Source: an uncultured Gemmatimonadales bacterium
GTDB lineage: Bacteria > Gemmatimonadota > Gemmatimonadetes > Gemmatimonadales > GWC2-71-9
Assembly: GCA_963795085.1 (NCBI GenBank)
Contig: CAWCFX010000001.1
Location: 256,001 to 320,000, forward strand
Direction of reading: 5' to 3'
Length of the DNA stretch: 64,000 bases
Below are positions 29,603-37,186 of this stretch, piece by piece; the first letter of the stretch is position 1, and the number at the start of each line of letters is the position of its first letter. The notes under the pieces were generated by a model. That model saw only the letters and a program-made list of their open reading frames with translations. It made no database searches and was not told where the DNA came from. The position numbers were made by a program, and so were the translations under genes.

Positions 29603-31315
29603 GTGATTTTTTCGATCGACTCGACGTCGTGTGTCGCTTGTCTTGCCTGCGTCCGGGTCTGTCCGACCGAGGCGGTCGCGTTCGAGGATCCGGTCGTGCG
29701 CATCGTGGACGAGCGGTGCATCCGCTGCGGCCAGTGTGTCCCGGCCTGCCCTCACGACGCCATTGACGTGAGCGGGCAGATCGGGCGGGCGCTGTCGATT
29801 GCGGCGCAGGGGGGCGGCATCCTGATCCTGAGCCCCGAGGTCGCGGCCCACTTCCACCCGCTGACGCCGGAGCAGGTCATCAACGCCTGCTACGCCGCGG
29901 GGTACCGGTCGGTGTACCGCGGCGTGATCGGCGACGAGCTGGTGGCGGGCGAATATCTCAAGCTCTGGGACGACGATTCCTGGGGCACCATGCTTCGCTC
30001 CACCGACCCGGTGGTGGTCGAGACGATCACCAGCATCTACCCCGAGCTGGTGCCGTACCTGGCTCCCATCACCTATCCGCCGATCGCGGAGGCGCGCTAC
30101 CTCCGGGCGCTCTACGGCAGCGAGCTGCCGATCGTCTTTGCCGGCATCTGCCCGCCGGTGGGCGCGCCGGAGCTGGATGCCGGGATCACCTTCCACGACC
30201 TGGAGCAGTTGCTCAAGTTGCGGGGGGTGAACGTGGCGGCGATGGCGACCTTCTTTACCCGGATTCCAGAGGAACGGCGCCGCCACCTCTCGGCGGCGGG
30301 CGGGCTGCCGCTGGCCATGCTGGAGGAGGTCCGCCAGGCGGACGGGCGGTTCCGGAAGGTACGCGGCCTGGAGACCCTCCCGGCGCTGGTCCAGGCGATT
30401 ACGGTGGACCGGTTGGACCTGGGCTTCGTGGACATCCTGTCTTACGAGGGCTCCCTGGACCACCCGCTCTCGGGCCCGCCCGAGAAGTACTTCTGGCGCC
30501 GGTCGGTGGTGCAGCGGAGCGAGCCGCCCCGGAGCCCCGACCCGGTGGTGGACTCGGCGGTGGTGGCCAGCGTGGGCGCGACTTTCGAGGTGCATCCCCG
30601 GCGCCGCGCCGCCCTGCCGGACCCGGCCGCCGTCGAGAGCGTGCTCCACGCGATCGGCACCGGGCCCAACGGCCGGCCCTGGGACTGCCGGGCCTGCGGC
30701 TTCGAGACCTGCCAGCGCTTCGCGGAGGCGGCGGCGGGCGGGCGGGCCCTGATCCGGCAGTGCGTCATCTGGCAGGAGCACCGGGCCGATTCCGCGCAGC
30801 AGGAGGCGGCGGTAGATACCCTCACCGGGCTCGCCACCTTCAAGGTGCTCCGGGACCGGATCGGCTACGAAATCGAACGCAGCAAGCGGAGCGGCGAAGG
30901 CTTCGCGCTGCTCTTCATTGACCTGGACCATTTCAAGGTGGTCAACGACCGGTTCGGCCATGAATCGGGCAACGAGGTGCTCCGCTCGGTCGCCGGCGAG
31001 ATCCGGGCGGCGGTCCGGGCCAGCGACCTGGCGGCGCGCTACGGGGGCGATGAGTTCGTGGTGATCCTGACCCGGACCGACCTGGCCGGCGCCAACCGGG
31101 TGGCGGAGGCGCTGCGGGCCGGCATCGAGGGAGTGGGCCGGCGGCTGGGGTACGAGGTGGGTCTGGTGACGGCCAGCGTGGGGGTGGCGGAGTTCAACCC
31201 CAGCCGGCCGGCCGATGGCGACCTGATGGTCCTGGCCGACCGGGCGCTGTACGTGGCCAAGTCGGCCGGCAAGAACGCGGTGGGGACGCCGGACGGGGTC
31301 CTGGTGTCGGATTAA
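29603..31315 (+). CDS. Diguanylate cyclase with N-terminal 2x[4Fe-4S], [FeFe]-hydrogenase-like and FeS domains
   Basis: CVACLACVRVCP, CIRCGQCVPACP; DCRACGFETC...C; DTLTGL, DLDHFKVVND.FGH, RASD I-site, RYGGDEF. Confidence 0.88.
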   Translation: MIFSIDSTSCVACLACVRVCPTEAVAFEDPVVRIVDERCIRCGQCVPACPHDAIDVSGQIGRALSIAAQGGGILILSPEVAAHFHPLTPEQVINACYAAGYRSVYRGVIGDELVAGEYLKLWDDDSWGTMLRSTDPVVVETITSIYPELVPYLAPITYPPIAEARYLRALYGSELPIVFAGICPPVGAPELDAGITFHDLEQLLKLRGVNVAAMATFFTRIPEERRRHLSAAGGLPLAMLEEVRQADGRFRKVRGLETLPALVQAITVDRLDLGFVDILSYEGSLDHPLSGPPEKYFWRRSVVQRSEPPRSPDPVVDSAVVASVGATFEVHPRRRAALPDPAAVESVLHAIGTGPNGRPWDCRACGFETCQRFAEAAAGGRALIRQCVIWQEHRADSAQQEAAVDTLTGLATFKVLRDRIGYEIERSKRSGEGFALLFIDLDHFKVVNDRFGHESGNEVLRSVAGEIRAAVRASDLAARYGGDEFVVILTRTDLAGANRVAEALRAGIEGVGRRLGYEVGLVTASVGVAEFNPSRPADGDLMVLADRALYVAKSAGKNAVGTPDGVLVSD

Positions 31316-31402
31316 GACTTTTTGCCCGGGCGCCGATATACCAGACGGCGGCACCGGGGGCATCCTGTTGGCTGACCATTCCTCGGCAACCACGAGACTG
31401 AT

Positions 31403-36800: not shown

Positions 36801-37186
36801 ACCTCGAAATCCTGGAGGAATCCGCCGATCGCCAGGCCGGTCCGGAATTCGTCACCGAACAGATCGCCCGCGGCCAGCCGGTCGAGATCCAGCGTGAGGT
36901 TGATGGTGGCCAGGCGGAGATGGTCCCGGTCGCCCACCAGGACCTCGCGACCCAGCTTACCCCGGATCACCGAGGCCGCCGTGGCCAGGGAGTGGCGCCC
37001 TTCGTTGGGGGTGCCGGAGCCCCAGAGCAGGTCCGCCAGTTTCTCCCGCCGGTGGGGAATCCGCGGTTCCAGCGCAAGGTAGATGAGCAGGGCCACATGC
37101 TTCCGCACCCGGAATCGCACGGGCTCACCGCCGGGCGAAATCAGCTGAGGACGGCCCAGACAACGAAGATGATACGGCTGGCCCAT
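33842..37186 (-). CDS. wHTH/BTAD (SARP-like) plus STAND AAA ATPase plus TPR transcriptional regulator
   Basis: LLIYLAL...REKLADLLW N-terminus; FIGRAEE, GDSGVGKS Walker A, IIDDVHLAD Walker B; helical TPR-like C-terminus; probable ATG at 37186. Confidence 0.88.
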   Translation of the reverse strand: MGQPYHLRCLGRPQLISPGGEPVRFRVRKHVALLIYLALEPRIPHRREKLADLLWGSGTPNEGRHSLATAASVIRGKLGREVLVGDRDHLRLATINLTLDLDRLAAGDLFGDEFRTGLAIGGFLQDFEVADAHEFMLWTDRQRARWVPVVRDALVRMIDRCRRTGDFKRIESIGHNLLDIDELSEDGIRARMEARAFDGDRLTSLKIYEAWKAKLDEQLHATPSPLVEGIAIRLRRRDWETVSTNIPTVPTDQWRGRPFIGRAEEYRALYESWENTMRRYPHHALVLGDSGVGKSTLIERVGTAAGLEGAALSRVSCYEVEREIPYAAITGLVAGLLDRPGVSGTPPEWLAELSRTVPEIRRRYPSIPDPLETQGETARLRLTEAFQQLTLSIAEEHPVILIIDDVHLADDASLAVLHLVMRRTQDQRIMVLLAARPAELGQSPHAAWLREGHAPLRMQILDLPPMSPQESDDLLVILLPSDRPQPSAAVRRALLHASAGYPMVLEYLVQDWETNGEQCLALSIGAMTEEPRTADGPSLTYKLIVQRLVQGLEPSVRNVLNMASVLGSRVNDIDLYSLADVTIGQTMTGLGKLTDMRILRDGGRGLEFCNELVRGQAYLQVPSPVRRTLHRSIAERLLAQEQQGISIPGLEIAWHCIRGGLLERATPYLLSGAREAIRHGAPHEAERALVTALGDLKEPKRTDAQLLLAEALHEQGRWEDTLAVLSSQPISPSDPRATAAFVLSVEAKRRLSIISADSTDDLIVHLLRIAQADSNIATRVQAFRSAAYLQVYVPIVPSLSTQMACILLSFEGLILSDEDYATVTVASGILHYHAGRTDQAIQELECAAQRLDDRHSANTVAVAVHEALGNIHAAVGSYEHATAHHYRAFVIAKHVGNERMSSRVAANLVRCSTRLGQYREAVTWLGAALEHDGHRKTDDLSHCLYHGAVATAILGREGETRPVLEQLQQIAGTTDSLRIRQNCLLFLADCLLLLGRTHEAMGVAKAATSSSLERLQSPNTAGLFARWVAFLACSNSKKEVPPPRLQKMFENRNTYDRIDRTEILCAVIVTGNHLGQDTTGLEEILRRELETLPPAVGQFLERLGFMPARKIIPS

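Follow-up and report, generated by a model that had tools for sequence, protein, structure and literature searches.

A conserved micro-protein with a variable tail, a structured leader RNA and an allelic MASE9/TPR cassette in a conserved c-di-GMP locus of the Gemmatimonadota

We describe a locus in a 64,000-nucleotide (nt) stretch of DNA from an uncultured Gemmatimonadales bacterium (GenBank assembly GCA_963795085.1, contig CAWCFX010000001.1, positions 256,001 to 320,000; hereafter the window), in which four co-oriented genes, namely those for an Fe-S GGDEF cyclase (gene A) and a protein without known family (gene B), a tiny open reading frame (ORF) and the gene of a membrane HD-GYP phosphodiesterase (gene C), converge with a gene for a large regulator (gene D; Table 1). 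Comparison with related loci indicates that the low-GC block spanning the small ORF, the whole of gene C and the 3' third of D, which encodes tetratricopeptide repeats (TPRs), is a lineage-wide allelic cassette whose deeply diverged alleles have been exchanged among close relatives; the parts that catalyze or bind DNA are conserved, and it is the peptide tail, MASE9 and the TPR end that vary. On our reading, the product of the small ORF would be a cognate ligand or partner of the MASE9 domain of C, of the TPR domain of D, or of both, within a conserved cyclic di-GMP (c-di-GMP) module of the Gemmatimonadota, and we regard this reading as evenly poised between right and wrong. The five elements had been proposed in a first-pass annotation made from the letters of the sequence, together with an 8-nt overlap of the stop ends of the convergent genes C and D (33842-33849), and all were recovered here with small coordinate corrections.

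The small ORF of the window has a Shine-Dalgarno (SD) sequence, AGGGGG, 10 nt upstream of its ATG, and an ORF was found at the same place in all of the first 17 loci examined. From 77 distinct leaders we extracted 73 ORFs (of the other four, three lacked an in-range stop and one ran off the end of its contig), which encode 19-35 amino acids (aa), carry a tryptophan (W) within the last three residues in 70 of 73 cases and are preceded by an SD-like tetramer at 72 of the 73 loci. The ratio of synonymous to nonsynonymous single-nucleotide codon changes is 1051:655 in the reading frame but 518:1297 and 252:1480 in the two alternative frames, a pattern indicating that the small ORF is translated. 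When the peptides are aligned on the tryptophan, positions W-4 (E), W-3 (G) and W are conserved, and W-2, W-1 and W+1 are variable; the nonsynonymous difference (pN) is 0.18 in the last six codons versus 0.049 in the rest of the ORF (98 close pairs), and the ratio of nonsynonymous to synonymous difference (pN/pS) is 0.17 in the N-terminal part. Of 18 loci sampled in other families and classes, 17 have the ORF too, encoding 14-35 aa, hydrophobic in all cases and ending in W or in W plus one residue; the peptides of one family (f6) are only 14-16 aa long. The predicted product is therefore described here as a hydrophobic micro-protein of 14-35 aa with the C-terminal tail E-G-x-x-W-x.

Two loci depart from this description. 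In one genome of family f3 (L025, G032:C5) the small ORF lacks the usual stop and extends to 82 aa, and in the close relatives L026 and L027 it encodes 29-31 aa ending in W. At another locus (L039), where A and B are 99-100% identical to those of L044, the ORF continues beyond its normal stop position (MLKMNLL...SGSACSWRLSL), and recovery of C did not extend to its N-terminal part; this locus may be degenerate or mis-assembled.

The set of orthologous loci was obtained by a DNA search of 40 relatives followed by tblastn on their loci (the tallies for relatives and for the 151 genomes considered below include two unpublished genomes, G018 and G083, on which no claim rests). The order A-B-ORF-C with a convergent D was found in every orthologous locus with enough sequence. 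Among contigs sampled at one genome per species, 573 of 598 matching stretches encode a relative of B, and among the best 80 of these 598 there was no locus with room for C or D that lacked it. Of 20 regions from other families and classes of the phylum, 18 have a MASE9-HD-GYP gene after B, mostly with a convergent D-like gene, and the order B-small ORF-C recurs in families f2, f6, f7, f11 and f12. The arrangement is far beyond chance. Orthologous loci without the small ORF or without the gene order, which the first-pass annotation had named as counting against its proposal, did not turn up; both are conserved phylum-wide.

Between roughly 32200 and 35000 of the window, GC content is about 0.52, down from about 0.70. 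In all orthologous loci measured, it was 0.49-0.65 in C and 0.51-0.67 in the C-terminal third of D, against 0.64-0.75 in A and B, and the GC boundary within D, near 35000-35100 in the window, coincides with its hypervariable TPR part. This composition had been called foreign at first pass; the low GC across the small ORF, C and the TPR end of D stands, but recent horizontal import into this genome is rejected, because all orthologous loci share the deficit, and the composition is therefore a property of the cassette. Pairs of genomes in which A is 94-98% and B 94-99% identical have C only 66-73% identical; B remains 94-100% identical where the cassette is 43-52% identical, and in genomes that share 90-99% identity in A and B, identity in the TPR end of D is 25-39%.

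The boundaries are best seen in one pair of loci (L063 and L068), compared over 12.7 kb, in which nucleotide identity is about 90-97% outside two sharply bounded blocks. The first (6879-7770) holds the small ORF and MASE9 and is 49-67% identical, the second (8223-9650) holds the 3' end of C and the TPR end of D and is 32-52% identical, and the HD-GYP domain between them is 81-97% identical. Amino-acid identity, synonymous divergence (dS) and nonsynonymous divergence (dN) in this pair are, respectively, 0.98, 0.19 and 0.01 for A; 0.99, 0.18 and 0.00 for B; 0.72, 0.15 and 0.19 for the peptide; 0.52, 1.86 and 0.42 for the MASE9 part of C; 0.97, 0.60 and 0.02 for its HD-GYP part; 0.95, 0.33 and 0.03 for residues 1-690 of D; and 0.39, saturated and 0.75 for D from residue 691 to the end. 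Because dN in the variable blocks exceeds dS in the flanks, relaxed constraint alone is insufficient, and either old alleles were swapped in or these parts are under diversifying selection. The same ordering of segments was observed in seven further close pairs.

A second pair, of metagenome contigs (L131 and L136), shares about 840 nt at 100% identity, a stretch that runs from the end of B across the leader and ~62 nt into the ORF; from the peptide tail (GEGQNWA versus GEGMTWS) through MASE9 identity falls to 40-60%, recovers to 82-93% in HD-GYP and drops again at the end, so that the breakpoint lies inside the small ORF. Two loci (L041 and L096) have an identical peptide and a similar cassette, which the equally related L046 and L075 do not share. 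A count of nearest-neighbor incongruence (22 of 55) was given no weight, being inflated by partial high-scoring segment pairs (for example, for the A gene of L096, whose flanks are as similar as others).

We evaluated co-variation of the peptide with the two candidate receptor domains by partial Mantel tests (40 loci, 28 of them with D; 999 permutations; fifteen loci dropped for short or aberrant pieces). With the divergence of A and B held constant, peptide divergence was correlated with that of MASE9 (r = 0.27, p = 0.001), of the TPR end of D (r = 0.32, p = 0.001) and, less strongly, of the HD-GYP domain (r = 0.14, p = 0.022), and showed no correlation with the N-terminus of D (r = -0.05, p = 0.68). 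The correlation with the TPR end was 0.39 (p = 0.001) when the N-terminus of D was held constant, and MASE9 and the TPR end were correlated with each other at r = 0.50 (p = 0.001, A and B constant). Linkage accounts for some of this correlation; even so, the peptide follows the far-off TPR end more closely than the HD-GYP domain encoded nearer to it. Such co-variation of peptide, receptor and TPR domain had been suggested as a check at first pass; it is found beyond what phylogeny accounts for, with sharply bounded blocks in the manner of agr and comQXP.

Co-folding of the 30-aa peptide of one locus (L094) with its 247-aa MASE9 domain gave an interface score (ipSAE) of 0.43 (0.42, 0.43 and 0.45 in separate runs), compared with 0.02 for the best of three controls; the runs share at least 90% of their contacts, and the predicted local distance difference test (pLDDT) of the partner is at least 65. 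The mark applied was reached by 116 of 157 solved complexes and by 2 of 215 mismatches, and scores at or below 0.60 account for 18 of the 157 and for both passing mismatches; because our own alignments were used for the peptide and MASE9, these calibration counts hold only roughly. The models lend weak support to an association of the peptide with MASE9.

The intergenic DNA upstream of the small ORF is conserved among relatives, and we predicted its structure from 68 sequences, using RNAalifold and pair counts, with slid partners and 500 shuffles as controls. The predicted fold (Table 1) has a long-range helix, H1, with a 5' arm some 130 nt before the ORF and a 3' arm 10-30 nt past its stop, so that the ORF is enclosed; compensatory changes occur in nine of its nine pairs, and 87.6% of its cells are paired. 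Inside H1 is a junction in which H4, with compensatory changes that include an A:U to U:A swap in 12 sequences, pairs the SD of the small ORF, and the 3' strand of H2 directly precedes the start codon. Over the whole structure, 93.8% of cells are paired, versus 44-51% with slid partners, and there are 139 double-change cells versus 13-50 in the slid controls; none of the 500 shuffles attains the observed values. The many G:U pairs are consistent with an RNA on the strand of the genes (+), and the single-sequence minimum free energy fold of the window also forms H1 and H3. The covariation indicates that the leader is an undescribed structured RNA with an SD-sequestering three-way junction and a long-range helix. 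No family of Rfam 15, the c-di-GMP-I and c-di-GMP-II riboswitches included, reached its gathering score in the window; the only match at 32100-32500 was at chance level (E = 9.5).

A covariance model built on the leader finds one strong copy in its own genome; among 151 Gemmatimonadota genomes it finds the leader in 58 of 71 genomes of family f1 and in two of two of f3, with only weak matches elsewhere. A genus-specific leader pattern had no matches in metagenome data. One genome (G117) has two strong copies, each beside a B gene (C79:3386-3547 and C178:25982-26143), and is either a case of module duplication or a mixed bin. Only 7 of 48 loci show an SD-like tetramer before the first ATG of C, which lies a median of 40 nt past the stop of the small ORF. 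Because the start of C is mostly SD-less and close behind the ORF, synthesis of C would require both translation of the ORF and an opened leader; we infer translational coupling from ORF to C. The AGCGG(A/G) repeats (three to four) and the UAGCG loop of H3 are invariant across about 70 species and suggest either a binding site for some multimeric RNA-binding factor or a pocket for a ligand. We also considered the AGCGGA repeats as SARP boxes for D. Such boxes are phased at 11 or 22 nt, unlike the spacing here (about 10, then 13-17 nt), and the repeats lie within the covarying transcript; this role seems improbable, although it keeps some standing.

Gene C matches HD_5 (Pfam, 2.7e-34) and its translation contains HHERWDGRGYP, of the HHExxDGxGYP type expected of a phosphodiesterase. 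The match to MASE9 (PF20972) has E = 2e-9 and 38.1 bits, versus a gathering threshold of 24.3 (39.5 bits in the genome search), and C is the sole MASE9 match in its own genome; a control search outside the phylum found MASE9 in Thermus thermophilus and Thermotoga maritima. D matches AAA_16 (1.5e-23) and TPR_19 (7.2e-11) in Pfam, and its BTAD score of 18.3 bits lies under the cut-off of 22.1. The AlphaFold2 model of residues 1-255 (pLDDT 91.3) was matched by Foldseek to AfsR (8hvr_I, E = 1.7e-9) and EmbR (2ff4_A, E = 1.9e-8) over 260-264 columns; at the level of sequence, D had no match to the solved AfsR chains at E<=0.001. Since this model matches the Streptomyces antibiotic regulatory protein (SARP) domains of AfsR and EmbR over their full length, D is, as modeled, an AfsR-like large SARP of the SARP-NTPase-TPR type (SARP plus AAA_16 plus TPR). 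Pfam and NCBIfam give D only AAA_16, generic TPRs and BTAD, and with its SARP N-terminus D does not belong to the RRNPP fold families (Rap, Rgg, NprR, PlcR and PrgX).

In the mechanism that we propose, the MASE9 sensor, the TPR domain of D, or both would be matched to the peptide, chiefly to its x-x-W-x tail, and the outputs would be c-di-GMP hydrolysis by HD-GYP and SARP-driven transcription by D, with the Fe-S GGDEF cyclase as the opposing c-di-GMP input. The leader would keep the SD of the peptide paired via H2 and H4, and H1 would close over the ORF and reach the SD-less start region of the phosphodiesterase gene; with the SD paired and H1 lying over the start of C, peptide and phosphodiesterase would be made together, and only when the leader opens. 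Alleles of the cassette (peptide tail, MASE9 and TPR end) would be exchanged as in pherotype loci. Co-varying cassette parts combined with conserved output parts fit a matched ligand-receptor set, and we infer on this basis that the peptide physically binds MASE9 or the TPR domain. A fuller version, in which a strain-specific ('pherotype') peptide is sensed by both the MASE9-HD-GYP protein and the TPR domain of D and is converted into c-di-GMP and transcriptional output, a first for the phylum, gated by a new class of leader that may respond to a ligand or to B, is one that we put forward tentatively and think less likely than not.

Several observations weigh against a peptide matched to these two domains. 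In two close pairs (L094/L081 and L091/L044) the cassette has stayed conserved, and the TPR end of D diverges also in pairs with a conserved MASE9. The peptide and MASE9 are adjacent, so that part of their co-variation can be plain linkage, and catalytic domains are as a rule under stronger constraint than transmembrane and TPR domains. The only conserved neighbor of unknown function, B, does not co-vary (dN about 0), unlike AgrB or ComQ, and no export, processing or modifying enzyme was linked to the locus in the flanks examined, nor was a Peptidase_C39 found in the genome itself (93% complete). A hydrophobic helix may dock on any transmembrane bundle, and the f6 peptides, at 14-16 aa, lack the length needed to cross a membrane. 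The pair L131/L136 can be a chimeric assembly at conserved k-mers, which weakens this pair taken alone; the occurrence of the double-block pattern in metagenome-assembled contigs with conserved sequence on both sides argues against such an artefact.

Three other accounts of the small ORF were considered. The ORF may serve only as a cis-acting leader peptide, the translation of which, possibly with pausing at E-G-x-x-W-stop, unwinds H1 and admits ribosomes to C, with no function in trans. The enclosure of the ORF by H1, whose 3' arm abuts the start of C, the scarcity of SD-like tetramers before C compared with the ORF, the short distance between the two and the arrest-peptide-like clustering of conserved residues at the C-terminus all favor this account. 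Purifying selection nevertheless acts along the whole ORF, its N-terminal part included, hydrophobicity is kept in every lineage, and positions W-2, W-1 and W+1 vary with the MASE9 and TPR alleles, a match that a pure coupling device does not need. We therefore think a role in cis alone rather unlikely; as one of two functions it is compatible with the ligand reading, since the ORF could serve both.

The micro-protein could instead be a constitutive membrane subunit or modulator of the MASE9-HD-GYP protein, comparable to MgrB with PhoQ, which carries no signal and owes its hypervariability to relaxed constraint or to conflict with phage or competitors. A hydrophobic helix co-expressed with the enzyme would suit this account, as would the weak co-fold support (0.43 versus 0.02), and conflict systems commonly feature STAND NTPases whose TPR sensors vary. 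Relaxation alone cannot, however, yield a dN in the variable blocks above the dS of the flanks, the polar tail rather than the hydrophobic helix is the most variable part of the peptide, and the f6 peptides could not cross the membrane as such a subunit would. For the conflict variant, D bears a SARP DNA-binding domain and no killing effector, and PADLOC returned generic HD and TPR matches only, for which reason we rejected assignment to a known anti-phage defense system; overall this account strikes us as unlikely, though a serious contender. We give very little credence to a hok-like type I toxin module, in which a toxic hydrophobic peptide, its mRNA silenced by 5'-3' pairing and SD occlusion, would lie beside the HD-GYP gene by chance: the small size and hydrophobicity of the peptide, the sequestered SD and the long-range 5'-3' helix around the ORF do resemble hok, but the ORF is single-copy and strictly syntenic across the phylum, neither mobile nor multi-copy, and is co-oriented and likely coupled with the gene downstream.

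Table 1. Features of the locus in window coordinates
Feature	Position	Strand	Description
Sigma-70-like promoter candidate upstream of A	29541-29569	+	TTGACA-17-AATATT; consensus scan, no evidence of function
Gene A	29603-31315	+	2x Fer4, Fe_hyd_lg_C-like, PF04060 Fe-S, GGDEF (Pfam/NCBIfam)
Gene B	31403-32143	+	246 aa, without known family
Low-GC block (allelic cassette, from sequence comparison)	~32150-35100	.	GC ~0.52 versus ~0.70 around
Helix H1, 5' arm	32187-32213, core 32200-32209	+	Long-range helix; RNAalifold, pair counts
AGCGG(A/G) repeats (three)	32232-32237, 32243-32248, 32256-32261	+	Invariant or near-invariant columns in 68-70 leaders
Helix H2	32260-32266 with 32335-32341	+	GAGCGUC with GACGCUC; invariant; 3' strand directly before start codon
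Hairpin H3	32268-32290	+	Loop UAGCG conserved; compensatory changes in 6/6 pairs
Helix H4	32290-32296 with 32329-32335	+	Anti-SD CACUUCC with SD GGGGGUG; compensatory changes in 3/5 pairs
Small ORF	32344-32409	+	21 codons, ATG start, sequence MVSATIRFLMKVLGAGENQSW, tail ENQSW
Helix H1, 3' arm	32411-32442, core 32415-32424	+	Immediately before HD-GYP start
Gene C	32449 (TTG) or 32464 (ATG) to 33849	+	MASE9 ~32575-33153, HD-GYP ~33211-33717
Gene D	33842-37186	-	Predicted SARP + AAA_16 + TPR regulator, ~1100 aa
Gene D, C-terminal TPR-rich third	33842-35116	-	~Residues 691-1114; hypervariable, low GC
Gene D, N-terminal part	35117-37186	-	SARP domain ~36476-37186; AAA_16/STAND NTPase ~35894-36415

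The GGDEF domain of A (PF00990, 1.3e-38; TIGR00254, 1.1e-44) has, in translation, an intact GGDEF motif and an RxxD motif (RASD) five residues upstream, and orthologues of A are 55-79% identical. Protein B had no match in Pfam, NCBIfam or PADLOC. In its AlphaFold2 model (pLDDT 80.7), residues 26-99 are ferredoxin-like and residues 119-241 form a tandem beta-beta-beta-alpha domain, closest to the regulatory, amino-acid-binding domain of LeuA/citramalate synthase (3f6g_B, Z = 9.4, root mean square deviation 3.1, 110 aa). A reading of B as a double-stranded RNA-binding domain protein was rejected, the Foldseek matches being weak, with poor TM-scores, and the match to the LeuA regulatory domain better. 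A profile search with B collected 2356 cluster representatives at E<=0.001, and all 12 family members tested against Pfam were without a match; B is present in 110 of the 151 sampled Gemmatimonadota genomes. A second, weak match (E about 1e-12), confined to the C-terminal beta-beta-beta-alpha half of B, is present at unrelated sites in many genomes (for example, G021:C5:17303-17668 and G058:C1:638593-638925), so this domain also occurs in other proteins. The adaptor role first assigned to B finds no support: B resembles a LeuA-type regulatory domain and, because it is nearly invariant where the cassette differs, is not the specificity partner. If a guess is allowed, B may recognize a small molecule, the conserved leader or the core of the peptide.

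In other genomes, a gene for a sigma-54 enhancer-binding protein (Sigma54_activat plus HTH_8) lies directly upstream of A (L094:2215-4119, with a gap of 28 nt, and L013:8931-9998), and this activator may belong to the module. In the window the sigma-54 activator gene is at 24702-26609 (+), and here only, two ORFs without Pfam match, at 26835-27632 (+) and 27717-29312 (-), separate it from A; they look like an insertion into a conserved neighborhood. Scanning the region for promoters gave three sigma-70 consensus sites (0.8 expected) and 11 matches to the sigma-54 pattern (13.8 expected), none of the latter convincing around the locus. Some genera have an extra gene of about 200 aa (HTH_17 excisionase-like plus response-regulator receiver) between B and the leader (L018:3615-4280 in G013; likewise in G014, G023 and G024). 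Downstream of D, the window encodes a SulP/STAS sulfate permease (38613-40277, +) and a MoxR-type AAA ATPase (41420-42433, -), both of ordinary kinds; L094 does not keep them beside the module and has a DUF3597 protein after D. The genome encodes four OppA-family binding proteins, away from the locus.

The ligands of MASE sensor domains of c-di-GMP enzymes are largely unknown, and the locus gives a genetically encoded candidate ligand for MASE9, one that natural sets of cognate and non-cognate alleles make directly testable. The preprint by Galperin and Chou (10.1101/2021.11.05.467447) defines MASE9, proposes ligand binding within the membrane and notes that, among MASE9 proteins, only HdgA of S. 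venezuelae has been studied. Our literature search, which covered titles and abstracts, returned no description of this peptide/HD-GYP/leader module in the Gemmatimonadota or as a c-di-GMP pherotype. If our reading is right, polymorphic peptide-receptor signaling would extend beyond the Firmicutes and beyond kinase and RRNPP receptors, an AfsR-type STAND regulator would be linked to a peptide, and kin-specific peptide sensing would be turned directly into c-di-GMP level and transcription. The c-di-GMP field would also gain an undescribed, covariation-supported regulatory RNA and a widespread uncharacterized protein family, that of B.

The closest parallels are agr (AgrD/AgrC) and comQXP (ComX/ComP), in which, as here, the peptide gene is directly upstream of the gene of a multi-pass membrane receptor, peptide and sensor domain are hypervariable next to a conserved output domain, and alleles are exchanged among close relatives. 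The invariant tryptophan of the peptide also recalls ComX, which carries a modified tryptophan. The locus differs from both in having an HD-GYP phosphodiesterase rather than a histidine kinase as its output, in having no co-varying processing or modifying gene (B being invariant), and in adding a second hypervariable partner, the TPR end of the STAND regulator, and an ORF inside a structured RNA; moreover, agr and comQXP are loci of Firmicutes, and the Gemmatimonadota are regarded as diderm. RRNPP, SHP/Rgg and ComS/ComR systems likewise combine a short hydrophobic peptide, about 17-35 aa long and variable in its last C-terminal residues, with a regulator in which a DNA-binding domain is joined to TPRs that here co-vary with the peptide. 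D, however, has a non-RRNPP fold (predicted AfsR-type SARP plus AAA_16 plus TPR), the HD-GYP gene separates it from the peptide gene, and export and re-import of the peptide would be conceivable by analogy only. Having no co-varying processing enzyme, no kinase and no RRNPP fold, the module falls outside both groups.

Two further classes resemble parts of the locus. MgrB and SafA, which act on PhoQ, are small hydrophobic proteins of the kind that may act here on the membrane domain of a signaling enzyme, but they are not hypervariable allelic partners, share no structured leader and have no second cytoplasmic receptor. The leaders of ermC, secM-secA, mifM-yidC2 and tnaC have an upstream ORF within a helix that occludes downstream initiation, with conserved residues toward the C-terminus of the peptide; here, by contrast, the SD of the leader ORF is itself sequestered (conserved three-way junction, AGCGGA repeats), and the peptide is selected over its full length and co-varies with two protein domains. 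For the regulator, the counterpart is AfsR of Streptomyces (SARP-NB-ARC-TPR), which has the same three-part architecture and whose SARP domain, as seen in its transcription-activation complex, matches the predicted N-terminal fold of D; D belongs to another phylum, and its TPR end is hypervariable and tied to a peptide/HD-GYP cassette.

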